Positions 1,805 through 52,447 of a stretch of 52,447 bases of DNA are shown piece by piece (positions within the stretch are counted from its first letter, which is position 1; each line of letters starts with the position of its first letter). Both the position numbers and the translations under genes were made by a program. The notes under the pieces were generated by a model that made no database searches, was not told the origin of the DNA, and saw only the letters and a program-made list of their open reading frames with translations. Source of the stretch: Parcubacteria group bacterium. GTDB taxonomy: Bacteria; Patescibacteriota; Minisyncoccia; Phycocordibacterales; 21-14-all-47-15. Where the stretch lies: assembly GCA_016181845.1 (NCBI GenBank), contig JACOYO010000006.1, positions 1 to 52,447 on the forward strand, written 5' to 3'.

Positions 1805-2188
1805 ATGACTAAAAAAACTGCCGTGATTAATCGTATGTTTTGGTCCGTTCTGTCTGCGGCGCTTTTTTTACCGACAATAATTGCACGGGCTGCTAGCACC
1901 GGACAAGTACCAAAGCAAAGCGTATTTAAACTTAAGAACCCGATAGGCGCAGAGTCATTCCAAGAACTCATCCAAAAAATGCTCGGGGTCATGCTTGATA
2001 TCGGCGTGCCTATCGCGACGCTCTTCATCATTTATTCCGGTTTTCTTTTCGTCAAAGCGCAAGGCAATCCGGAAAAATTAAAAGAAGCGAAAGAAACTTT
2101 TTTCTGGACAATTGTAGGCACGGCGGTTCTTCTCGGCGCATGGGTGTTGGCACAGGCGATTAAGGGAACGATTGAGTCGCTCAAATAA
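1805..2188 (+). CDS. TrbC/VirB2-like (T4SS-pilin-type) small membrane protein, paralog 1
   Basis: Signal-like N-terminus, then two TM helices separated by a charged loop (GFLFVKAQGNPEKLKEAKETFFWTIVGTAVLLGAW). Same architecture as the next three ORFs. This small-protein family is abundant in CPR genomes. Confidence 0.7.
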   Translation: MTKKTAVINRMFWSVLSAALFLPTIIARAASTGQVPKQSVFKLKNPIGAESFQELIQKMLGVMLDIGVPIATLFIIYSGFLFVKAQGNPEKLKEAKETFFWTIVGTAVLLGAWVLAQAIKGTIESLK

Positions 2189-2197
2189 AATAGAATC

Positions 2198-2758
2198 ATG
2201 AACCAGGAATCAGAAATCAGAAATCAATTTTTTACAAAACAAATTAAGAAGTCCAACTTCTGCATTGGCATGAAATCGGCATTGACCGTTAAGACGTCCG
2301 ACCTCTGGATTGGTAAAACATCAGCATTGGCCACAAATAAAGTAATTACCACATCAGAGGTCGGACGTCTCGCCGGCTTTTCGCAAGCAGGGCTTCTCAT
2401 TGTGTTGTTTATTTTTTTATCGTTTCCTCTTTCAATTTATGCCGCTAACGAATGTTCTTTCCCACCAGCAACATTCAAAGCTTTTATTTGCGCGACGATA
2501 GAAACGATACTCTCCCCGCTCATCCCCATTCTCTTCGGCCTTGCTCTTGTCGTGTTTCTTTGGGGAGTCGCGAGATATGTGATTAGAGGCGCTAATGACG
2601 AAAAAGAACGAACGCAAGGAAAACAAATTATGCTCTGGGGTATCATCGGCCTCTTTGTGATGGTATCGGTGTGGGGGCTTGTAAAAATTGTTGGTGGTGC
2701 GTTTGGACTTGAAAACACCACTAATCCGCCCAAAGTAAGCATACCGAGAATACCGTAA
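2198..2758 (+). CDS. TrbC/VirB2-like pilin paralog 2. The true start is probably internal (GTG ~2402 or TTG ~2330 inside the repeat).
   Basis: The C-terminal 115 aa align with paralogs 3/4 (FLWGVARYV..DEKERTQGKQIMLWGIIGLFVMVSVWGLV). The first ~60 codons are a read-through of the palindromic repeat (KTSALATNKVITTSEVGRL). Confidence 0.65.
   Translation: MNQESEIRNQFFTKQIKKSNFCIGMKSALTVKTSDLWIGKTSALATNKVITTSEVGRLAGFSQAGLLIVLFIFLSFPLSIYAANECSFPPATFKAFICATIETILSPLIPILFGLALVVFLWGVARYVIRGANDEKERTQGKQIMLWGIIGLFVMVSVWGLVKIVGGAFGLENTTNPPKVSIPRIP
2246..2370 (+). repeat. Palindromic element, copy B: degenerate left half (2246-2288) plus full core (2290-2370)
   Basis: The same ~80-bp core sequence, lying inside the annotated 5' part of pilin paralog 2. 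Confidence 0.85.
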
Positions 2759-2855
2759 AGAGACGTCCGACTTCTTTATCCACAAAGAAAGTTGTCTTTA
2801 CCTGCTGTATATTCTATGATAAAGACACTTGATTATGAGTATCAAATAATGGTCG

Positions 2856-2935
2856 AAGACGTCCGACCTCTGAATTGGTAAAATACCGGCATTTGCCACA
2901 AATAAAGTAATTACCACATCAGAGGTCGGACGTCT
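2856..2935 (+). repeat. Palindromic element, copy C
   Basis: Full core between pilin paralogs 2 and 3. A 15-nt fragment AGACGTCCGACTTCT also sits at 2761-2775, directly after the paralog 2 stop. Confidence 0.85.
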
Positions 2936-2987
2936 TACACGCAGATATCGGACTTCTTTAATGTTTTAACAATTTAAATATAAAAAT

Positions 2988-3326
2988 ATGATGAAAAAAT
3001 TATTTATAATCTTTGGCGTTATCGTCATGCCCTCAATCGCGTTTGCGGCCGGAGAACTTTTTACCAAAGTAAGCGAGCTTCTTAATTCAGTTATCCCAAT
3101 TATTATTACCATCGCGGTAATCTATTTCCTTTGGGGGGTTGGTAAATATATAATGTCTTCCGGAGATTCTGAAAAGCAGGAGGAGGCGCGCGGCATGATG
3201 ATTTATGGTATTATCGGCCTCTTTGTGATGGTATCGGTATGGGGGCTTGTCAATATACTTGTCCAAACAGTCGGGCTTGATAGTGGCGCCATTCCTAATC
3301 TCCCGCAGGTACCTTCTACCCGTTAA
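2988..3326 (+). CDS. TrbC/VirB2-like pilin paralog 3
   Basis: Signal peptide MMKKLFIIFGVIVMPSIAFA, then YFLWGVGKYIMSSGDSEKQEEARGMMIYGIIGLFVMVSVWGLV. Followed by its own terminator. Confidence 0.75.
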   Translation: MMKKLFIIFGVIVMPSIAFAAGELFTKVSELLNSVIPIIITIAVIYFLWGVGKYIMSSGDSEKQEEARGMMIYGIIGLFVMVSVWGLVNILVQTVGLDSGAIPNLPQVPSTR

Positions 3327-3347
3327 TAATTCTACAAAAAGATTTCT

Positions 3348-3385
3348 AAAAACAACCGCGCTTTATAGCGAGGTTGTTTTTTTAT
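3348..3385 (+). terminator. Rho-independent terminator after pilin paralog 3
   Basis: aaaaacaaccgcgc-ttat-agcgaggttgttttttt: GC-containing hairpin followed by a T-run. Confidence 0.6.
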
Positions 3386-3404
3386 ATCGTTCATAATATC
3401 ATGT

Positions 3405-3692
3405 ATGTATATGAATCTCTTTCAAACACCAGTCGCTTACGCCGCAACAGGCATTGAAGACACTATCGGAAAAATCACCAGTAACATCATACAGCCGATT
3501 ATCGGATTTTTGTTTGCGCTTGCGCTCGCTATGTTTCTTTGGGGCATCGTGCAATTTATTGCAAACGCAGAAAATGAAGAAAAGTTAAGCGAAGGCAAAG
3601 AACACATGCTTTGGGGAATTGTCGGCATGGTTATCATGGTGTCGGTCTTCGGCATCATGAATCTCATATGCAAAACCATTGGCGCGTGCTAA
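3405..3692 (+). CDS. TrbC/VirB2-like pilin paralog 4
   Basis: MFLWGIVQFIANAENEEKLSEGKEHMLWGIVGMVIMVSVFGIM has the same two-TM layout. CATAAT at 3392-3397 lies 7 nt before the ATG. Confidence 0.7.
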   Translation: MYMNLFQTPVAYAATGIEDTIGKITSNIIQPIIGFLFALALAMFLWGIVQFIANAENEEKLSEGKEHMLWGIVGMVIMVSVFGIMNLICKTIGAC

Positions 3693-3763
3693 TCACTTGG
3701 AGACTTCGCCTCCAAGTGATTACGAAACACCGACAGGAAGTCTAACTTCGACATTGACCGTTT

Positions 3764-3910
3764 GGACGTCCGACCTCTGCAGTGGTAAAACATCGGTATT
3801 GGCTATTTAGACGTCCGACCTCTGAATTGGTAAAACATCGGTATTGGCCACAAATAAAATAATTACCACATCAGAGGTCGGACGTCTCACACATCAGAGG
3901 TCGGACGTCT
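3764..3910 (+). repeat. Palindromic element, copy D: extra left arm, full core (3808-3886) and extra right arm
   Basis: Left arm 3764-3807, full core, then a second CATCAGAGGTCGGACGTCT at 3890-3910. Preceded by an 11-bp hairpin aatcacttgga...tccaagtgatt at 3691-3721. Confidence 0.85.
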
Positions 3911-9785: not shown

Positions 9786-10979
9786 TTATTTTACAATTTT
9801 CGTTACAACTCCGGCGCCGACAGTCTTGCCACCTTCACGGATAGCAAACCGCTGTTTTGCTTCAAGAGCGACAGGTGAAATGAGTTTTACGGTAAATGTA
9901 ACTGTGTCCCCTGGCATAACCATTTCCCGCCCTTCAGGCAACGTAACCTCACCAGTCACATCCGTCGTTCGGATGTAGAATTGTGGTTTATAGCCCTTGA
10001 AGAACGGTGTGTGTCGTCCGCCTTCTTCTTTCTTCAAGATGTAGACTTCCGCTTCAAAGTCGGTGTGCGGAGTTACCGAGCCGATTTTCGCAAGCACTTG
10101 CCCGCGGGTGATGTCTTCTTTCTTGGTTCCTCGGAGGAGGATTCCGGCGTTGTCGCCAGCCATTCCTTCATCAAGCGACTTGTTGAACATTTCAATACCG
10201 GTAACTGTCGTTTTTGCCGTATCTTTGAGTCCGATGATTTCAATTTCTTCTCCTACTTTGATTTTTCCGCGTTCAATACGTCCGGTGGCTACCGTGCCGC
10301 GTCCTTCAATGGAGAAGATGTCTTCCACCGGCATAAGAAACGGCTTATCAACTTCGCGCACCGGTACAGGAATATATTCATCGAGCGCTTTTGCCAAATC
10401 AAGAATCTTTTTTGCCCATTCATCATCAACCGATTTCGCTTCAAGCGCTTTGAGCGCCGAGCCGCGGATAACCGGCGCGGTGTCTCCTTCGTACTGATAC
10501 TTGTTGAGCAATTCTCGAACTTCCGCCTCTACGAGGTCAATCAAGTCAGGGTCGTCAACCATGTCTACTTTGTTTAAGAAGACAATGATTTTTGGCACGC
10601 CGACTTGGCGCGCAAGCAAAATGTGCTCGCGAGTCTGCGGCATCACGCCGTCTGTCGCGGCAACGACCAAAATCGCGCCGTCCATTTGCGCGGCGCCGGT
10701 AATCATGTTTTTAATATAGTCGGCGTGTCCAGGCGCGTCTATGTGCGCGTAGTGCCGAGCATCAGTTGAATACTCGTTGTGTGAAAGCGCGATGGTAATA
10801 CCTCGAGCTTTTTCTTCCGGAGCCGAGTCAATCTGGTCAACTCCTTTTAGTTTTACTTGCTTGCCCGCCAAGTTCAATACATTGAGAATTGCGGCGGTAA
10901 GAGTGGTCTTGCCGTGGTCAACGTGGCCGATAGTGCCTACGTTTACGTGTGGCTTTGACCGGTCAAATGCTTCTGCCAT
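9786..10979 (-). CDS. tuf: Elongation factor Tu
   Basis: [15 protein letters not shown] and NKVD motifs; 397 aa. Confidence 0.98.
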
Positions 10980-11078
10980 AAAGTTTTTAGCGACGAAACA
11001 TTACTCTGCGAGAACAGATGGGTAATGTTTTGCCGTTAGTTACATGCTAAATTATTAATAATATATGTTTCGTCTTCG

Positions 11079-11175
11079 CTCCTTACAGGAGCAGTACACC
11101 TTTTGGATATATTTTCGCTTTCGGCTCAAATCTATCTCAAAAGGTCTTGCGCCGCTCCATGTATTCGCGCCGCAA
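11079..11175 (-). repeat. Three-hairpin structured module (H3-CAGTACA-H2-H1 family), stand-alone copy
   Basis: CTCCTtacaGGAG + CAGTACA + ACCTTTTGGATATATTTT..AAATCTATCTCAAAAGGT + TTGCGCCGC..GCGCCGCAA. Same architecture as the units next to tRNA-Leu(GAG) and downstream of rplK. Confidence 0.7.
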
Positions 11176-21811: not shown

Positions 21812-21972
21812 GTTGACCACCTCCATTCGAGTAAAAATTTATATTTTATTATTGATGTCAAAGAGATTTTATTTGTTTTAATGTTATCACATAATACAAA
21901 AAAGTCAAGGGGCACCGTGTAATGCGCGCGCACAGAGGACTTTCTCTAGATAGATTATAAGTTCCATTTTGG

Positions 21973-22282
21973 TGCGCGGGAGAGGATTTGAATCTTACAG
22001 ATTCAGTACACCTTTTGGATATATTGCTTCGCAAGCTCGCAATCTATCTCAAAAGGTTTTCAAATCCGCATAACGCTTCGCGAAAGCGAAGCTATGCCTC
22101 CCGCGCATATTACGCTTCGCTCCAATATGCGCGGGAGAGGATTTGAATCTTACAGATTCAGTACACCTTTTGGATACATTGCTTCGCAAGCTCGCAATCT
22201 ATCTCAAAAGGTTTTCAAATCCGCATAACGCTTCGCGAAAGCGAAGCTATGCCTCCCGCGCATATTACGCTTCGCCCCAATA
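21973..22282 (-). repeat. Two tandem 155-bp units immediately 3' of tRNA-Leu(GAG). Each ends in a copy of the tRNA's 3' 22 nt and begins with its inverted complement.
   Basis: tgcgcgggagaggatttgaa starts at 21973, 22128 and 22283, giving a period of 155. The units are ~98% identical and differ at about three positions that I saw. Confidence 0.9.
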
Positions 22283-22366
22283 TGCGCGGGAGAGGATTTG
22301 AACCTCCAAGCCCTTGCGGGCGCTACCACCTCAAGGTAGTGCGTCTACCAATTTCGCCACCCGCGC
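22283..22366 (-). tRNA. tRNA-Leu (anticodon GAG), long variable arm; no encoded CCA
   Basis: GCGCGGG acceptor, CTACC-TTGAGGT-GGTAG anticodon arm, variable arm CGCCCGCAAGGGCTT, T arm GGAGG-TTCAAAT-CCTCT. Confidence 0.9.
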
Positions 22367-22378
22367 AAAATTGTATTT

Positions 22379-22384
22379 AGTATA
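22379..22384 (-). promoter_or_regulatory. -10 box TATACT 12 nt upstream of the tRNA-Leu(GAG) 5' end
   Basis: The minus strand reads ccaTATACTaaatacaatttt|GCGCGGG. Confidence 0.35.
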
Positions 22385-22414
22385 TGGTATTTTGTATGCG
22401 GTATCAAGAAAACT

Positions 22415-27348: not shown

Positions 27349-30300
27349 TCACTTTTCGTTTTGCGTTTGTATACGCACTCTAAACACCGCATCGTCAACG
27401 GTGATGTCCGCGCCATCTGATACGGCGGCAAAAAATATTTCTCTGGCACGAAGCGCTTTTTTAATATAGGAAAGATACGTATTGATTATTTCTTTTCCAA
27501 AATTATTTGCTTCTATGGTGATAATAATTTCATCGCTCGTGGAAAATTCTTTTTCTTTCCTTATATCCTGCAGGGCGCGGACAAATTCACGCGCCTGTCC
27601 TTCTTGTTTGAGTTCGGGTGTTATCAGCGTATCTAATTCCACATCGTTTTCCATTGAGTCGCTAAATGTTATTTCTTTCACATTTACTTCATCTTTAATC
27701 AGTTGCAATAATTCCTCGTTGTTCCTGATTCCTGATTCCTGATTCCTGATTCTTAATGTCATAAGCGGCTGGCGCACTTTAATTTTTGCTTTCATTCGCA
27801 GGTCAAGCGCGAGCGAAACAATGCGTCGTGCTTCTTTCATTTTTTCTATAATTCCAGTCTCCGCTTTCCAGTTTTCAGTCTCCAGTTTCGGCCATTCTTC
27901 AAAATGGACGCTTGCTTTTACTCCGCCCAACCTTTGATACATATCTTCGGCAATAAACGGCAGTATCGGCGCGATAATTTTTGAGAAAGAGAGCAAGACT
28001 TCGCGTGTGGTATTTCGCGCGTGCTCCTTATCTTCCCCCTCTTCCTTAAATCGATCGCGTGAGCGACGAATATACCACGTGGACAAATCATCCACAAAAT
28101 CGCCGACGGGCTTCACCGCGCGGTCAAGCTCGTAGGCATCGAGCGCTTCTTCAATTTGTTTCCCAAGCACGTTTGCGCGCGCAAAAATCCATTCGTCCAA
28201 AACATTTTTTGTTTTGCGTTTTGCGTTTTGCGTTTTTGAATTTTTATACAGTTCAAAAAAAGAGAGTACATTTTCCAAACGCAGAATAACTTTTTTATAT
28301 ACTTCATCCACGCCTTTTTCTGAAAAAAAGAGTGTTTCTCCGCGCACCACCGGCGAAGCAAGCAGATAGTAGCGGAGCGCGTCAGCGCCATAGGTATTGA
28401 TGATATGCGCCGGATCGGGATAATTTTTAAGACGCTTTGACATTTTTTGCCCGTTTTCCGCAAGAATCAAGCCGTTCACAATCACATTTCTATACGCCGA
28501 TTCTCCAAACAGCCCGATTGAAAGCACGAGCATGTTGTAAAACCACCCGCGCGTCTGGTCCAATCCTTCGGCGATAAAATCGGCGGGAAAATTGGCGCGA
28601 AAGAGCTTGCCTTCTTTGGTTGCGTCAGTCCCCATGTAATGAAACTGCGCGTATGGCATAGAGCCCGATTCAAACCAGCAGTCAAAGACTTCGTGGACGC
28701 GGCGCATCATTCCTCCACACTCACTCCGACGCTCACGGTCGGAGTTCCGACCCCTTTGGGTGTCGGAACAATCAAAAATCATTTCATCAATATAAGGTCG
28801 ATGCAGGTCAAGCTCATAATTGTGATTATGAGGAAACGGCACAAACGATAATGCCATTGAGCCGCCGGTTTTAATAAAATCCTCCCCCGCTTTTTCTTTC
28901 ATGGCGACCGCTTCTTTCACATCAGCTCCAAGCGCTCCCGCCGCAAGCATCCACGACGGATACTCGTGCGTCACTATCAGTATGGTTTTTCCTTGATACA
29001 TGGCGTCCGTTTCAGAAAGGAAATCCATAAGACGATTTTTCATATCAAGCAATGTTTCTCCGCGCGGTGTCGGTTTATAAAATTTTTCTTCCGGCGATGA
29101 AAAATAATCGTGATACACGGACACCGGTTTGCCATCCAAATCGCCCGTGACTAATTCTCTTAAACGATTATCCACGATAATATCAGCGCCCGAAATATCC
29201 AACGCCTCGGCAAGAATATCGGCGCTTTCCTTGGCGCGCACAAATGGCGACGTGAAAATAAAATCAATTTTTTTCTCTTTCAGTTTCTTCGCGGCGGTTT
29301 TCACTTCCTCTTTACCTTTTTCGGTCAGGTGATGCGGAGTATCCGGATTGCCGCTCAACACATTTTCTTTATTGTGTTCCGCTTCTCCATGCCGTATCAA
29401 AATATATTCATTGCGCGGTTTTTTTGCTTTAGTAATATCCGCTAGCGAGCCGACAATGTGAATAGTCGCGCACTTTTCGCATTTCCAAACCGGAATCGGC
29501 GCGCCCCAATATCGCGAGCGCGAGATCGCCCAATCGCGCGCCCCTTCGAGCCACTTGCCAAAACGTCCGTCACGGATATGCTCCGGCACAAAACGGATTT
29601 TTTTATTCGCCTCAATCAGGAGGTCTTTAAATTTTGTCACCCCAACAAACCATGATGACGCCGCATAATTTAGAAGCGGCGTATCGCATCGCCAACAATG
29701 CGGATAGGGGTGTGTTATTTTTTCTTTCGCAAAGAGAAGTCCGCGGTGCGCGAGATTTTTGATAATCATGACATCTGCTTCTTCTGGATTCTCTTTCGGC
29801 TTTACTAACGCTCCGGCAAAATCGGCAACCTCTGTCTTGAACCGCCCGTCCATGCCGACATGCTGAATAAACGGCAAATCATATTTTTTACCGAGCTCCA
29901 TATCGTCTTCACCGAATGACGGTGCGATGTGCACGATGCCAGTCCCGCTTTCCGTGTTCACAAAATCCGCCGCGTACACTTTCCAGCCGTTTTCACGATT
30001 GGAAAGTTTTTCGTCTTTTGAATAATAGTCAAAAATCGGCTTGTATTTTTTACCTATAAGCTCGCTTCCTTTTATTTCTTCAAGAATTTCATACTCTTCT
30101 TTTATTACCGTGAGCCGCTCTTTCGCAATAATATACGAATTCATGATTCCTAATTCATGATTCATGATTCCGATTTTTACATACTCAATATCAGGATTCA
30201 CCGCGAGCGCCACGTTCCCCGGCAATGTCCACGGCGTCGTCGTCCACGCAAGCATGAACGTCCCGGGTTCATCGACAAGTTCAAATTTTACATACACCGA

Positions 30301-30921
30301 AATATCAGTGATGTCTTTATATCCCTGCGTCACCTCGGAAATCGCAAGCGTCGTCTCGCACCGCGGACAAATGTGCATAGACTTGAACCCTTCATAAATG
30401 AGCCCTTTGTCATAAAGCGTCTTGAACGCCCACCAGATTGATTCCGTGTACTGCCAGTCCATCGTGCGGTAGCTTTTTTCCATGTCTACCCATCTCCCCA
30501 TGCGCGGCACCACTTCTTTCCAGTCCGTGTCATACCGAAGCACACTCGCTTTCGCGGCTTCGTTAAATTTTTCAACGCCAAGCGCCTCAATATCTTTTTT
30601 ATTTTTCAGACCGAGCTCTTCTTCTATTAAGTTTTCAATCGGAAGACCGTGACAATCCCAACCCCACTGCCGCCGCACATATTTCCCTTTCATCGTCTGA
30701 TAACGCGGGATGACATCTTTGATGGTGCCGGCAAGCAAGTGCCCGTAATGCGGAAGGCCCGTTGCAAACGGCGGCCCGTCGTAAAAGACAAACGGTTCGC
30801 CTTCTTTGTTTTTTTCAAGTGATTTTTGAAAAATATTGCGCTCGCGCCAAAAACGAAGGATTTCCATTTCCCTTTCAGCAACTTTGGATATTTCTTTTTT
30901 TTGTTCCGGTTCTTTTTTCAT
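27349..30921 (-). CDS. ileS: Isoleucine--tRNA ligase, type 2 (eukaryote-like), with an inserted histidine-phosphatase-like domain
   Basis: PPFATGLPHYGH (HIGH) and KMSKRLKNYPDP (KMSKS), plus editing domain motifs. The insert NEYILIRHGEAEHN...IVTHEYP is at ORF residues ~506-700. An ATG start at 30921 is preferred over the TTG at 30927. Confidence 0.95.
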   Translation of the reverse strand: MKKEPEQKKEISKVAEREMEILRFWRERNIFQKSLEKNKEGEPFVFYDGPPFATGLPHYGHLLAGTIKDVIPRYQTMKGKYVRRQWGWDCHGLPIENLIEEELGLKNKKDIEALGVEKFNEAAKASVLRYDTDWKEVVPRMGRWVDMEKSYRTMDWQYTESIWWAFKTLYDKGLIYEGFKSMHICPRCETTLAISEVTQGYKDITDISVYVKFELVDEPGTFMLAWTTTPWTLPGNVALAVNPDIEYVKIGIMNHELGIMNSYIIAKERLTVIKEEYEILEEIKGSELIGKKYKPIFDYYSKDEKLSNRENGWKVYAADFVNTESGTGIVHIAPSFGEDDMELGKKYDLPFIQHVGMDGRFKTEVADFAGALVKPKENPEEADVMIIKNLAHRGLLFAKEKITHPYPHCWRCDTPLLNYAASSWFVGVTKFKDLLIEANKKIRFVPEHIRDGRFGKWLEGARDWAISRSRYWGAPIPVWKCEKCATIHIVGSLADITKAKKPRNEYILIRHGEAEHNKENVLSGNPDTPHHLTEKGKEEVKTAAKKLKEKKIDFIFTSPFVRAKESADILAEALDISGADIIVDNRLRELVTGDLDGKPVSVYHDYFSSPEEKFYKPTPRGETLLDMKNRLMDFLSETDAMYQGKTILIVTHEYPSWMLAAGALGADVKEAVAMKEKAGEDFIKTGGSMALSFVPFPHNHNYELDLHRPYIDEMIFDCSDTQRGRNSDRERRSECGGMMRRVHEVFDCWFESGSMPYAQFHYMGTDATKEGKLFRANFPADFIAEGLDQTRGWFYNMLVLSIGLFGESAYRNVIVNGLILAENGQKMSKRLKNYPDPAHIINTYGADALRYYLLASPVVRGETLFFSEKGVDEVYKKVILRLENVLSFFELYKNSKTQNAKRKTKNVLDEWIFARANVLGKQIEEALDAYELDRAVKPVGDFVDDLSTWYIRRSRDRFKEEGEDKEHARNTTREVLLSFSKIIAPILPFIAEDMYQRLGGVKASVHFEEWPKLETENWKAETGIIEKMKEARRIVSLALDLRMKAKIKVRQPLMTLRIRNQESGIRNNEELLQLIKDEVNVKEITFSDSMENDVELDTLITPELKQEGQAREFVRALQDIRKEKEFSTSDEIIITIEANNFGKEIINTYLSYIKKALRAREIFFAAVSDGADITVDDAVFRVRIQTQNEK
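27724..27751. repeat. Four tandem heptamers CCTGATT inside ileS (encode RIRNQESGIRN)
   Basis: cctgattcctgattcctgattcctgatt read directly from the sequence. Confidence 0.9.
28211..28231. repeat. Three tandem heptamers GTTTTGC inside ileS (encode KTQNAKRKTK)
   Basis: gttttgcgttttgcgttttgc. The same AAAACGC word builds the spacers at 27283-27365 and 41540-41660. Confidence 0.9.
28828..29412 (-). other. Histidine phosphatase superfamily (PGAM-like, branch 1) domain embedded in IleRS
   Basis: RHGE at nt ~29381-29392, FTSPFVRAKESA, RLRELVTGDLDG and ILIVTHEYP, found in the order expected for His_Phos_1. Confidence 0.7.
30139..30173. repeat. Five tandem heptamers ATTCATG/ATTCCTA inside ileS (encode GIMNHELGIMNS)
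   Basis: attcatg attccta attcatg attcatg attccga. Confidence 0.9.
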
Positions 30922-31112
30922 GCCCAAAGTGCTTTCATCGTATCACGGACGAGAACAGTTGAAAAATCGGTTGTATTCTTTATTTTTCGAAAAATCACCG
31001 CCTGCCGCCACCTTTTAATGACGAGGCGGGATGGCGGGTCATCAAAGAAACTCCGGCTTGAATAAAAACAATCGTAGTGTGCGCGCTTACACTCAAGCTC
31101 CAAAAATTTTAA

Positions 31113-35386: not shown

Positions 35387-36499
35387 TCACTGAAACTGTT
35401 TTGACAGCACGGGACCGGATTGCACCCGATAGTGCGAGGTATCAAGCGTGTCGTAATGCTCCGAGGGCTCTTCGGACATGCGTTCAAAATAAATTTTTGC
35501 AATCGGCTGACCATGCCTGATGCACAAATCTTCAAACGGGCGGACTTCAAGTGTCAGCGGTCTGCCATTTTTCACCCCGTCAATGCCATACCCCCACCCC
35601 GGGTCAATAAATCCGGCATAGTGCGCGCGAAATTCTCCGCTTCGTTCATCCATCGGCATCATGACACAAGAGAGGTCGGGGGGCACTCGTACGTATTCAT
35701 TCGTGGATAAAATATAAAAACAATTTCGCCGAAGAATGATGCGCCCTTCTTTGGAGCTTGTTTCATTGTTGAGAATCGGATGGAAAAACGTCCGCATATC
35801 CTGCTCCAAAACGGAAAAATCAAAAATCGTATTCGTGCCGCGGCATTCATAACCAACGACAGGTTTTGATGATAAATCAGCCGTCAAAATCACTGATTCA
35901 TCGTTATCGTTGATTTTCAAATCCGTATACGAAAATGGCTTCCCGTCCATGTCAAAGACGAGCCCAGACATGAGGCCGAGCTCCAGTTCGGTTTTCCCGA
36001 GACGGGTATCGGCGTCAAAAAATCTGACCTGCGCCAACCGTTCCCCATCGCGAATTTTCACCGGAAAAGAATTCGGCAAAATGGTCATCCACAGATTCCC
36101 GTCATACCCACGTGGGATTTTGTCATACCGCGGCACCCTGTCGGCCATAAGCCGCACGTGTATATCTGTGCGTCCGGAACTTGATTTTGGATTAGAGAAA
36201 CCATACACTCCTGGCAATTTTGACAAGTGAAATGATTCTCGTACACGCGCCAGATATACGATGCCTTTCTCTAGCGGATTGGAGAGATTGTGTTTGGACG
36301 CGCCGACATGCGGCAATACATCGCGCACGCACTCATTGTCTCGCAGTAAAAAATTGGAACCAAGACGATACACTTCGTCGCCACAAACCGAGATATCAAT
36401 AGACGCTGGATTTATATTCTCTGTTTTTCCGTCAACAATAACACCCTTTTCAAGCATTTTAATAATCGTGTGCGACGGCAACGTTCCCTCTTTTCGCAT
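35387..36499 (-). CDS. dcd: Long-form 2'-deoxycytidine 5'-triphosphate deaminase (DCD family)
   Basis: ~370-aa dUTPase-fold protein: NPASIDISV..., GFIDPGWGY. The assignment to the long DCD family is from memory. Confidence 0.65.
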   Translation of the reverse strand: MRKEGTLPSHTIIKMLEKGVIVDGKTENINPASIDISVCGDEVYRLGSNFLLRDNECVRDVLPHVGASKHNLSNPLEKGIVYLARVRESFHLSKLPGVYGFSNPKSSSGRTDIHVRLMADRVPRYDKIPRGYDGNLWMTILPNSFPVKIRDGERLAQVRFFDADTRLGKTELELGLMSGLVFDMDGKPFSYTDLKINDNDESVILTADLSSKPVVGYECRGTNTIFDFSVLEQDMRTFFHPILNNETSSKEGRIILRRNCFYILSTNEYVRVPPDLSCVMMPMDERSGEFRAHYAGFIDPGWGYGIDGVKNGRPLTLEVRPFEDLCIRHGQPIAKIYFERMSEEPSEHYDTLDTSHYRVQSGPVLSKQFQ

Positions 36500-36576
36500 G
36501 GTTTATTCCTTTTTTTAAGAATCGCTTCTGTTAAAAAACACAGTTCTGTTCTTTGTAATAACATATTTCGACATTA

Positions 36577-36611
36577 AAACAAACTGCCCGCGTATGCGGG
36601 CAGTTTGTTTT
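36577..36611. terminator. Perfect 15-bp palindromic hairpin aaaacaaactgcccgc-gtat-gcgggcagtttgtttt (bidirectional terminator-like)
   Basis: Read directly; A-run and T-run on either side. Confidence 0.65.
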
Positions 36612-36635
36612 AATTATATAATGAAGTTTTTATTT

Positions 36636-36805
36636 CCTTTGAATTACAAAACATCAAGAGGCCAGACTTCTGCATTGATATAAAATCGGCATTCCTTGTT
36701 TAGACGTCCGACCTCTGAATTGGTAAAACATCGGCATTGGCTATAAATAAAGTAATTACCACATCAGAGGTCGGACGTCTTGTCGGCGTTTCGCAATTCA
36801 AAGTT
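36636..36805 (+). repeat. Palindromic element, copy G: outer inverted repeat, degenerate half and full core (36701-36780)
   Basis: CCTTTGAATTACAAAACA ... GCGTTTCGCAATTCAAAGTT flank the core. Confidence 0.85.
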
Positions 36806-37101
36806 ACCTCACTTCAACTCCTTACAGGAGCAGTAGTCACGAATATTTTTCTGTTGAAAAATTTCGCGACCACGACTCACTCGCTCTGGCTCGCTCCGTC
36901 TTTGAATTGCTTCAAGTGTTCGCAATTCAACCTTTTGGACATATTGCTTCGTAAACTCGCAATCTATCTCAAAAGGTCGATTGATGTTTCGTTACCTCAC
37001 ATCAACTCCTTACAGGAGCAGTACACCTTTTGGACTTTTTACTTCGCGCGGCTCGTAAAAATTCTCAAAAGGTCCATCGATGTTTCTTATTTCACATCGA
37101 T
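36803..37101 (-). repeat. Three consecutive hairpin modules of the H3-H2-H1 family, directly downstream of and overlapping the rplK stop
   Basis: GTTACCTCAC(T/A)TCAACTCCTTACAGGAGCAGTA occurs twice (36803, 36991). ACCTTTTGGA...TCTCAAAAGGT hairpins at 36930-36977 and 37024-37072. The terminal hairpin catcgatgt..acatcgatg includes the rplK stop codon. Confidence 0.75.
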
Positions 37102-37506
37102 GCCCATGCTTCGAGCCGTGCCCTCAATAATTTTTGAAGCGGCATCAATGTCGTGCGCGTTAAGATCTTGCATTTTCTTTTCGGCGATTTCTCGGATTTG
37201 CGCTTTGGTCACGCTTCCCGCTTTTATCACTGCGTTTTTTCCGGAACCTTTCTCTTTTCCTGCCGCTTTCAAAATAAGACTTGCCGCCGGCGGTGTTTTT
37301 AACACAAAATTAAAACTGCGGTCTTCAAACACGCTGATTTCAACCGGAACGATATCGCCTTTCATCTGTGCCGTCGCGTCATTAAATCGTTTGACGAATT
37401 CGCCGATATTAATACCCGCTTGTCCAAGCGCCGGCCCTACCGGAGGTGCGGGTGTCGCCGCTCCGCCCGGAATCTGCAATTTAAGTTTTTTTGTTATTTT
37501 TGCCAT
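37087..37506 (-). CDS. rplK: 50S ribosomal protein L11
   Basis: [30 protein letters not shown]. Confidence 0.97.
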
Positions 37507-52283: not shown

Positions 52284-52359
52284 GCGCGCTTAGCTCAGTT
52301 GGTAGAGCAACCCGTTTACACCGGGAAGGTCGGGGGTTCAAGTCCCTCAGCGCGCACCA
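52284..52359 (+). tRNA. tRNA-Val (anticodon TAC) with encoded CCA
   Basis: GCGCGCT acceptor, GCTC/GAGC D stem, anticodon loop TTTACAC, T arm GGGGG-TTCAAGT-CCCTC, then ACCA. Confidence 0.88.
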
Positions 52360-52377
52360 ACGAACGAAGTGAGTGCC

Positions 52378-52447
52378 GTGCGCGCTGAGGCGCAGCTTTT
52401 CTCGCAAGAAAAGCGTAGCGCGGACTTGAAAAGGTTGCCTGCTATTT
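52378..52447 (+). repeat. tRNA-linked structured element (truncated by the window end) whose 5' part is the inverted complement of the tRNA-Val 3' end, split by a hairpin
   Basis: GTGCGCGCTGAGG (complement of CCTCAGCGCGCAC in the tRNA) + hairpin GCGCAGCTTTTC-TCGCAA-GAAAAGC-GT-AGCGC + GGACTTGAA (complement of the T-loop TTCAAGTCC). Confidence 0.75.

Follow-up and report, generated by a model that had tools for sequence, protein, structure and literature searches.

The locus examined here raises the question of what two nearly identical, tandem 155-bp units represent when they stand directly behind a tRNA-Leu(GAG) gene and each carries inverted and direct copies of the 3' end of that gene. The locus lies on contig JACOYO010000006.1 of a Parcubacteria group bacterium (assembly GCA_016181845.1), of which positions 1 to 52,447 were analyzed; this whole stretch is called the window. 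An earlier inspection of its letters (the sequence-only reading) had described the units and offered three explanations for them, namely, a nonautonomous tRNA-targeting element, a tRNA-like noncoding RNA, and a cis-acting regulator of tRNA processing. We found that the units are copies of a Patescibacteria-wide family of ~120- to 200-bp noncoding cassettes that fold as the sense single strand, and all three explanations are still live. The general picture drawn from the letters, of units that are not tRNAs, form an unusual scar, and close on themselves through a stem, has stood; the conserved part is an internal core, H2-GUACUG-H3, and not the tRNA-like ends. The phylum-wide extent of the family, the existence of copies framed by genes other than tRNAs (e.g., rplK), and the optional nature of hairpin H1 go beyond that first description.

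The tRNA-Leu(GAG) gene is intact (22283-22366, minus strand; 22282-22367 by ARAGORN; Rfam RF00005, 52.9 bits), and its last 20 nucleotides (nt), T54 to N73 (TTCAAATCCTCTCCCGCGCA, at 22283-22302), constitute the stretch copied in the units. Reading along the minus strand, unit 1 (22128-22282) and unit 2 (21973-22127) abut the tRNA without a gap. Tandem Repeats Finder (TRF) reported a period of 155 bp, 2.1 copies, and 98% identity over 21973-22302, and repeat finding gave 99%. Unit 2 differs from unit 1 at only two internal positions (a G-to-A change in the linker loop and another at an unpaired position of hairpin H2), plus the base after the last copy. Covariance model R1, built for the family, matched unit 1 on 22136-22225 (89.2 bits, E = 8e-20) and unit 2 on 21981-22070 (90.4 bits, E = 4e-20). 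The presence of two almost identical units was thus confirmed by ARAGORN, Rfam, TRF, and direct comparison.

Each unit begins with a linker, TATT-GGGGCGAAGCGT-AATA, located by repeat finding (minus strand throughout; 22263-22282 in unit 1 and 22108-22127 in unit 2), and continues with an inverted copy of the acceptor 3' strand, TGCGCGGGAGG (22252-22262 and 22097-22107); linker, tRNA 3' strand, and inverted copy together form a 14-bp hairpin. Hairpin H1, supported by folding and family comparison, follows at 22224-22251 and 22069-22096, and after it an inverted copy of the T-loop and T-stem 3' strand, CGGATTTGAA (22214-22223 and 22059-22068). The two-part stem of hairpin H2, with its GAGC..GCGAA apex (22165-22213 and 22010-22058), leads through a GTACT junction into hairpin H3, GAATCT-GTA-AGATTC (22145-22164 and 21990-22009). 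The final 3 nt of H3 double as the first 3 nt of the direct copy of T54-N73 that ends the unit (22128-22147 and 21973-21992, the latter followed by CCA). All of the subfeatures named in the sequence-only reading (GCGCGGGAG, H1, GGATTTGAA, H2, TGTACT, and H3) occur where it had placed them; H3 is indeed a hairpin, but its drawing with a 5-nt loop gives way to one with a GTA triloop. Likewise, the last 22 nt of the tRNA do end the units, with three occurrences in all (0, 0, and 1 mismatches) and none expected in 100 shuffles.

Folding of the tRNA together with the array gave a z score of -13.9 against shuffled sequences. A single unit is predicted to close on itself, as had been proposed, through a 10-bp acceptor-like stem and then a 9-bp stem with the T-loop copy (z = -7.8 as RNA and -9.9 as DNA), with H1 branching off between the two stems and with H2 and H3 inside. 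The other pairing that had been suggested, between a unit and the 3' half of the genuine tRNA, is predicted too and is mutually exclusive with self-closure. The units are not tRNAs, as neither ARAGORN nor Rfam detected one inside them: an Rfam 15 search of this region at E ≤ 10 returned only noise (≤18 bits) within the units, and RF00005 matched the genuine tRNA-Leu alone.

Relatives of the units were collected with sequence patterns, a hidden Markov model (nhmmer), and R1, with loci taken as stretches of ~8 kb (designated by L-numbers); the lineages sampled were Saccharibacteria and Paceibacteria, and nearly all sequences were metagenome-assembled genomes (MAGs). The three approaches together brought the number of homologous loci to well over 200. 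Almost all belong to MAGs of Patescibacteria (Saccharibacteria and Paceibacteria/Parcubacteria lineages), and the family, with its strong covariation, extends across the phylum. A scan for a tRNA 3' end, a gap, and the reverse complement of that end showed the same architecture behind tRNA-Leu in a Paceibacterota MAG and in a Saccharibacteria MAG. The core pattern TTGAA-N40-70-GTACTGAA-N9-TTCAARTC occurred in at least 119 stretches, ~100 of them in Patescibacteria MAGs and the remainder being chance matches in other phyla. A 19-mer, GTACTGCTCCTGTAAGGAG, marked at least 119 further loci in species-level genomes across classes, almost all of them Patescibacteria. No description of the element was found in full-text literature searches. 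Rfam families likewise gave no match for the units of L025, and a search of 20 loci with variant cores returned tRNAs only, plus a single unrelated LOOT RNA (RF03000, 66.5 bits, at 5843-5962 of L267).

The family is tied to tRNA genes. A same-strand tRNA ended less than 400 nt upstream in 92 of 125 pattern matches, and 122 of 145 nhmmer matches lay ≤700 nt downstream of a same-strand tRNA, with 10 more at locus edges; without exception, the units have the same orientation as the gene upstream. The upstream tRNAs include Leu (five anticodons), Ser, Val, Tyr, Asp, Trp, Pro, Met, Lys, and Ala. Of 178 tRNAs in the loci of the candidate phyla radiation (CPR), 84 have a downstream copy of their own 3' end; roughly half of the tRNA genes in the Patescibacteria loci sampled are trailed by at least one cassette, in a sample biased towards carriers. 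Among these 84, 19 tRNAs with other T-loops are followed by units with different interiors ("type B") in which the frame follows the same logic. In an unbiased sample of rplS loci, tRNA-Leu(GAG) followed rplS in 52 cases; a clear direct repeat was present in 9 of these, ~10 more appeared unit-like by eye, and ~30 lacked a unit, some of them with an identical tRNA 3' end. R1 gave 26 matches (E < 0.01) in the 376 kb of these unbiased loci.

Across the family, the sense strand carries a linker hairpin, the inverted copy, usually H1, the core H2-GUACUG-H3, and the direct copy of the gene end, in this order. The linker starts directly after the discriminator base and takes one of two forms, a short one with a loop of the GAACGAAGTGA/GCGAAGC type and a long T-run hairpin resembling an intrinsic terminator; such a terminator-like hairpin separates the tRNA from the core in 40 of the 75 first units. 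Over 75 units, the inverted copy is 86.5% Watson-Crick complementary to the last 20 nt of the tRNA, with at least 17 of 20 positions pairing in 50 units, and its T-loop/T-stem segment covaries with the T-loop and T-stem of the neighboring tRNA. H1, with a family median of 25 nt, splits this inverted copy and is optional, since L212, L244, and L253 have an unbroken inverted copy of 18 to 20 nt. In most units, the 13 nt after TTCAARTC in the direct copy match the tRNA exactly through the discriminator base. The core itself consists of the two-part hairpin H2 with its GAGC..GCGAA apex, a (G/U)GUACUG junction, and H3 capped by a GUA triloop. No aligned sequence deviates from GTACTGAA or the GTA triloop, but this is partly forced by the search pattern, and the invariance of TTGAA, GTACTGAA, and TTCAA is in part imposed in the same way.

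The fold of the core is maintained by compensatory change. Among 55 diverse sequences, such changes occur at 18 of 18 pairs of H2, the three inner pairs of H3 covary, and both sides have changed in 26 of 33 pairs; 87.3% of cells are paired versus 66.1% in column shuffles. The covariation score was 0.517, compared with 0.167 for shuffled alignments (none of 500 shuffles reached the observed value) and at most 0.165 with slid partners, and RNAalifold recovered identical helices independently. Even within a close pair, L126 and L133, a GCG..CGC helix has become GTG..CAC by a double change. The outer stem of H2 contains ~31 G-U pairs but only 2 A-C pairs when read on the tRNA-sense strand, and the fold is therefore under selection in the sense strand, whether RNA or a single strand of DNA, rather than in duplex DNA or a cruciform. 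The frame helix presents a different pattern: its mismatches (52 G-U versus 36 A-C) show a weak bias, which resembles templated copying followed by decay more than selection for RNA pairing. Few loops (6 of ~200) are of the GNRA or UNCG type, and GNA triloops are common.

The window itself holds four further copies or partial copies (one behind tRNA-Val, two after rplK, and one upstream of tuf), for a total of at least six in 52 kb. Directly after rplK (L11 by Pfam, 37087-37506), two tandem units occupy 36930-37086 on the minus strand (R1, 45.4 bits, E = 6.5e-9 on 36996-37086 and 22 bits on 36930-36977). Their frames consist of inverted and direct copies of the last codons and 3' end of rplK (GATGTGAAATAA / TTGATGTGAGGTAAC), and they carry a variant H3, CTCCTGTAAGGAG. 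The ~470-bp spacer upstream of tuf (9786-10979, EF-Tu by Pfam) contains a core copy, H2-GTACTG-CTCCTGTAAGGAG, at 11078-11148 on the minus strand (R1, 45.9 bits, E = 4.8e-9). Behind tRNA-Val(TAC) (52284-52359, plus strand), the start of a unit recognized by eye, with linker ACGAACGAAGTGAGTGCC, inverted copy GTGCGCGCTGAGG, H1, GGACTTGAA, and the beginning of H2, extends from 52360 to 52447, where the window ends; this tRNA has an encoded CCA, and both H1 and the class of H2 (AAGGTTGCC...) are different in its unit. In other genomes, the 19-mer occurs in frames on tRNAs with TTCGA-type T-loops, after rplK, and in a third frame type, GGTGAG-hairpin-CGCAAGACC. At the post-rplK position of L263, L315, and L317, perfect hairpins of 10 to 12 bp form with the end of each genome's own rplK and enclose its stop codon. 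Because the core also sits in rplK-type frames, the tRNA likeness of the units comes from their location and frame and not from the core.

The core behaves like a repeat within a genome. Cores behind different tRNAs of one genome have a median identity of 0.79, reaching 0.98 for L045/L103 and for two copies in L062, compared with a median of 0.61 (95th percentile, 0.77) between genomes. This identity does not extend into the frame: each locus has its own linker, inverted copy, H1, and direct copy, and H2 and H3 are exchangeable independently of one another. The same holds in the window, where H2 of the Leu units is 0.90 to 0.92 identical to that of an rplK unit and 0.86 to 0.88 identical to that of the tuf copy, versus only 0.61 to 0.63 for the same-locus unit of the nearest relative, L174, a carrier of two units as well, in which H1 and H2 are different. 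The closest L19 in the genome collection, 81% identical, comes from a Candidatus Lloydbacteria MAG, which places the window in a Paceibacteria/Parcubacteria-type member of the Patescibacteria.

Copies have also been rearranged in many ways. Tandem units occur in other MAGs (L073, L080, L102, L174, and L213), some copies are truncated by neighboring genes, and several contigs end inside units. In L025 (660-905), L060 (5752-5838), and L136, an element of ~88 to 150 nt (TCTTACAGAAGCTGT ... GTCTTGC-hairpin-TTTTCA) splits the direct copy at positions 61/62 or 65/66. These unit-like elements are probably nested units in the opposite orientation, as their reverse complement shows three hairpins: one like H1 with a TGGGA loop, one like H2 with a GAGCGAAGCGAGG apex, and one with a GTA triloop. 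In L102 (1-5620; Saccharibacteria CAYWWH010000004), near-identical units flank a 5.3-kb island whose open reading frames (ORFs) resemble, by eye, a nitroreductase, MarR, an HlyD-like adaptor, and a MacB-type ABC transporter, with no recombinase-like ORF evident; the junctions of the island share only ACCGCGCA. Units in L068 flank ~1.3 kb, an estimate from coordinates in which the intervening DNA was not read. Breakpoints directly after TTCAARTC recur in L052, L055, L061, L068, and L088. The units of L097, L100, and L116 (tRNA-Leu(CAA)-unit-miaA, in different CPR classes) end at TTCAAGTC and have no acceptor-strand copy. Finally, at the orthologous locus of L174 (3253-3530; Candidatus Lloydbacteria JACROH010000003), tRNA-Leu(GAG) breaks off after its 5' two-thirds and continues directly as the middle of H2 in the first of two units, and ARAGORN finds no tRNA-Leu; either the repeat has been collapsed by misassembly, or the tRNA has been lost to a genuine deletion.

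The reading that we favor, at slightly less than even confidence, is that the cassettes are a self-propagating, single-strand-structured repeat in the manner of repetitive extragenic palindromic (REP) elements and their hairpin-forming doublets (REPINs), miniature inverted-repeat transposable elements (MITEs), or integron attC elements. Cores would be copied or converted between loci of one genome, and whole units would amplify in tandem by recombination or slippage between the 20- to 22-nt direct repeats, which would be the simplest origin of the pair in the window. Copies would then nest, truncate, decay, and disappear. The inverted segment may pair with the 3' end of the gene and so guide or stabilize placement directly after it, while correction of the palindrome against the constrained gene could keep the copies matched. 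The active single strand would be either a read-through transcript or lagging-strand-template DNA. By analogy, the order of tRNA, linker, inverted copy, core, and direct copy might be the expected leftover of a CTX-phage-like integration of a folded single-strand circle; to our knowledge, a circle of ~155 nt is without precedent. Such propagation would require an enzyme encoded elsewhere, which is purely hypothetical. What the sequences show is the family with its architecture, covariation, strand, and distribution, together with the likeness of cores within a genome; how the cassettes propagate, that the inverted segment serves as a guide, and that an enzyme acts in trans are our inferences.

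Several observations weigh against self-propagation. No mobility gene was found near ~210 loci or in the 52-kb window: clustering of neighboring proteins at ~90 plus 119 loci revealed no transposase, integrase, or reverse transcriptase and only housekeeping genes; the 52 ORFs of the window include no integrase, transposase (Y1 transposases among them), or reverse transcriptase; no tnpA or other autonomous transposase partner was found in the window or in the 8-kb loci; and no neighboring protein family recurs as a possible partner except L11 (rplK). Insertion is also not directly shown, in that the rplS-tRNA-Leu loci include no filled and empty pair with alignable flanks. As a further sign of insertion, we looked for an encoded CCA behind the last copy instead of behind the tRNA. 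Since encoded CCA is rare everywhere (11 of 94, 11 of 84, and 14 of 84), this is uninformative, and the CCA after the last copy in the window is anecdotal. In CPR loci, most tRNA genes, with or without units, continue C-A-A/G after the discriminator, and a full CCA is present in ~12 to 17%. The similarity of cores within a genome could stem from gene conversion among functional RNA genes. The syntenic tRNA-Leu(CAA)-unit-miaA units of L100 and L116 keep every hairpin through different sequences, which suggests selection in place, and the recurrence of GTACTGCTCCTGTAAGGAG in at least 119 species-level genomes is more readily explained by a motif to which a conserved component of the cell binds than by selfish DNA that drifts. 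Lastly, we know of no mechanism that yields both an inverted and a direct copy of a target.

Among the closest known systems are the REP, bacterial interspersed mosaic element, and REPIN-RAYT repeats of Enterobacteria and Pseudomonas, which are likewise short, noncoding, extragenic hairpin repeats that are present in many copies per genome, after gene ends and inside operons. In REP/REPIN repeats, too, single-strand structure matters and copies evolve in concert within a genome, and some REPs have been co-opted for mRNA 3'-end stability. The many extragenic hairpin copies with concerted evolution are found here as well. However, REPs have a constant sequence and no locus-specific frame, whereas the cassettes are flanked by copies of the upstream gene end and stand behind tRNAs in ~85 to 90% of cases, and no RAYT-like gene was seen in the 52-kb window. 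MITEs (Correia, RUP, and ERIC) are also small, nonautonomous, structured, and co-transcribed in operons, with nested and tandem copies. They differ in having identical terminal inverted repeats in every copy and short target duplications of fixed length; the inverted ends of the cassettes are 7 to 20 nt of local sequence and differ at each locus.

Strand-specific folding of an imperfect palindrome, conservation of structure over sequence, and arrays of small units are shared with integron attC sites, the attP(+) of CTX phage, and the ends of IS200/IS605 elements (palindrome-associated transposable elements [PATEs]). In IS608, a short guide beside a hairpin pairs with the target, which is similar to the arrangement in the cassettes, where H1 is flanked by segments complementary to the upstream gene end; this resemblance is only topological. 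The cassettes lack attC GTTRRRY boxes, dif-like arms, and TTAC/TCAA cleavage sites, and no IntI, Xer-exploiting phage, or TnpA is adjacent. In place of RYYYAAC ... GTTRRRY and an intI-attI platform, the bases of the palindrome are TTCAAGT / ACTTGAA, derived from the T-loop, with no integrase nearby. PATEs have neither terminal inverted repeats nor target-site duplications, unlike the cassette frame with its inverted and direct local copies. One specific mechanism, which we consider unlikely, is a guide-directed element in which a ~70-nt core that folds as a single strand is copied behind the 3' ends of highly transcribed genes, above all tRNAs, generating or requiring an inverted and a direct copy of their last ~20 nt; or else the core would be the sensor of a 3'-end riboregulator of tRNA maturation. 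A guide-directed element of this kind would be a self-closing hairpin cassette that can amplify in tandem. Its nearest analogy might be a protein-less integron-like or CTX-like system of single-strand cassettes aimed at tRNA T-loops and served by a CPR enzyme.

The main rival to the favored reading, a serious possibility that we nonetheless doubt, is that the units are co-transcribed tRNA-like RNAs: the tRNA promoter would read through, RNase P and RNase Z would release the unit, and the core would bind a conserved factor. The predicted RNA would be an acceptor/T-stem minihelix carrying H1 and an H2-GUACUG-H3 three-way junction. Strong covariation on one strand, as is generic for structured RNAs, the excess of G-U over A-C on the sense strand, the constant orientation with the upstream gene, and a closing stem that equals an acceptor stem plus discriminator base are all consistent with this possibility. 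So are the conservation of the 19-mer across classes and the retention of hairpins at a syntenic locus despite sequence turnover. In the window, rplS (L19) and a bidirectional terminator lie upstream of the tRNA, a promoter-like site (TTGATA-17-TATACT, a consensus match only) lies at 22379-22407 on the minus strand, and the promoter of a GAF-histidine kinase gene lies downstream (21881-21908); a scan of the interval between the tRNA and the kinase promoter, units included, found no promoter-like or terminator-like site, which fits read-through but also means that no promoter was seen for the units. The copies linked to rplK and tuf lie on the sense strand beside those genes and are probably transcribed, because of this orientation and because 36996-37086 is upstream of a terminator-like hairpin (~36570-36610).

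Other features are difficult to reconcile with a released RNA. A T-run terminator-like hairpin precedes the core in 53% of first units. The closing stems of the copies outside tRNA loci are not tRNA-like, and processing by RNase P and RNase Z is therefore not a general principle. Degenerate, truncated, or interrupted copies are numerous, loops of the GNRA or UNCG type hardly occur, and mismatches of the frame helix have little G-U bias. Compared with known tRNA-like RNAs (the tmRNA domain, mascRNA, viral tRNA-like structures, and plant mitochondrial t-elements), the cassettes share an acceptor/T-stem minihelix that ends at the discriminator and is placed where RNase P and RNase Z might release it. 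They differ in that the T-loop is fully paired or replaced by a ~75-nt insert, that there is no D or anticodon arm, that the copies outside tRNA loci have no tRNA-like stem, and that the Rfam tRNA and tmRNA models and ARAGORN are negative.

It is improbable, in our view, that the cassettes act as cis-acting switches in which the inverted copy pairs either with the 3' half of the tRNA (or the stop-codon region of rplK) or with the downstream direct copy, closing the core. A factor bound to the core would choose between the pairings and thereby control tRNA 3' maturation, termination, or read-through. The two mutually exclusive predicted pairings described above are what such a switch would need, ACTTGAA and ACTGAA (within GTACTGAA) compete for TTCAAGT, and perfect 10- to 12-bp hairpins surround the rplK stop codon in three genomes. 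On the other hand, terminator-type linkers would stop transcription ahead of the inverted copy, and tRNAs normally fold co-transcriptionally, before the trailer is made. In addition, ~30 of the 52 orthologous tRNA-Leu(GAG) genes manage without a unit, and tandem and nested copies are hard to explain as parts of a switch.

Remnants of site-specific integration (attL/attR scars resembling cis-mobilizable elements [CIMEs]), with crossover in the T-loop and repeated integration producing arrays, seem very improbable. The direct repeat spans the T-loop to the discriminator base, reportedly the block that T-loop-type integrases classically use. Indeed, att sites at tRNA genes, tandem accretions, and CIMEs share with the cassettes a direct repeat starting at the T-loop (20 to 22 nt, in three copies in the window), arrays, an intact tRNA, and a supplied terminator. 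The recurrent breakpoint directly after TTCAARTC, the islands between units (an estimated 1.3 kb in L068 and 5.3 kb in L102), and the linkers that often provide the terminator of the tRNA also agree with such an origin. Yet the sequence-only reading had already found the array unusual for an integrase scar, and this holds: the loci examined and their surroundings (~90 homologous loci and the 52 window ORFs) yielded no integrase, no other recombinase turned up in these either, and the element was absent from 2.9 million viral contigs, in which only chance matches inside ORFs were obtained. The cassettes further differ from att repeats in that they carry no cargo, measure only 120 to 200 bp, contain the att core a second time in inverted orientation, form covarying hairpins, and occur also in frames from the ends of genes other than tRNAs. 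Compensatory covariation and strand asymmetry would not be expected of decaying att arms, nor would the same core in frames copied from rplK and other non-tRNA sequences or near-identical cores with different frames in one genome.

An assembly artefact or chance repeat is barely credible, even though the source is probably a metagenome assembly, the fusion of a tRNA 5' part with a unit in L174 is suspicious, two metagenome scans for the window-specific junction revealed no independent assembly, and a search for independent assemblies via exact proteins found none on record or only 1.6-kb contigs. Against it stand the 2 sites at which the copies are not identical, the more than 200 independent MAGs with homologous units, single or tandem, and the shuffles, 0 of 100 of which yield even one copy of the 22-mer.

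A number of known elements were considered and set aside. A prophage or integrative and conjugative element attachment site was rejected because no integrase was found at the loci and the viral scan gave only chance matches in ORFs. Hammerhead ribozymes do not fit by eye in junction lengths and sequences, a retron would be accompanied by a reverse transcriptase and a TnpB/IscB guide RNA by a nuclease gene, neither of which was found, and ARAGORN was negative for a permuted tRNA or tmRNA. An L1-binding leader was dropped in view of the absence of rplA here and the presence of the same core behind dozens of tRNAs. Mimicry by H3 of the tRNA-Tyr anticodon loop or of a tRNA-guanine transglycosylase substrate was dropped because the loop-closing pair covaries, which makes the loop a GUA triloop. 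Resemblance to a dif-like site is partial and confined to one H3 variant. The curated families of Rfam 15 (among them hammerhead, twister, hepatitis delta virus-like, tmRNA, Y RNA-like, T-box, and CPR motifs such as LOOT), searched at the gathering threshold and at E ≤ 10, gave no match for the element.

Patescibacteria have tiny genomes (~1 Mb) that are thought to be poor in repetitive DNA, and the core has been conserved in both the Saccharibacteria and the Paceibacteria lineages at least. If the cassettes are RNAs, they would be among the most widespread unannotated structured RNAs of the phylum, tied to tRNA and translation genes. If they are mobile single-strand elements, frames copied from the target in both orientations would imply a mechanism of insertion or conversion without described precedent. 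In practical terms, the repeats break MAG assemblies at tRNA loci and can destroy or mask tRNA calls, as in L174, and they should be masked or modeled in the annotation of CPR genomes.

Some other features of the window are worth recording. The L19 ORF (22452-23168, minus strand) encodes 238 amino acids (aa), of which only aa 98 to 198 match the L19 domain; provided that the first start codon is used, this L19 therefore has long N- and C-terminal extensions. The nusG-rplK region (35387-37506, minus strand) is followed by the repeats, a terminator, and a dCTP deaminase gene instead of rplA, such that no L1 gene adjoins the L11 gene; Parcubacteria lineages without ribosomal protein L1 have reportedly been described, and the arrangement in the window fits this. 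A class I aminoacyl-tRNA synthetase of the Ile/Val/Leu type (27349-30927, minus strand; 1,192 aa; PF00133 plus Anticodon_1) has a His_Phos_1 domain (aa 509 to 673) inserted in the middle of its catalytic domain. Four consecutive small ORFs at 1805-3692 (plus strand) all belong to PF18895 (T4SS_pilin / TrbC-VirB2) and are separated by repeat-rich spacers. A second, unrelated family of short repeats with the core CAGAGGTCGGACGTC, in direct and inverted orientations, is found at 2244-2329, 3761-3910, and ~36690-36790; its copies are located in the pilin gene spacers and, once more, beyond the 3' side of the rplK units.

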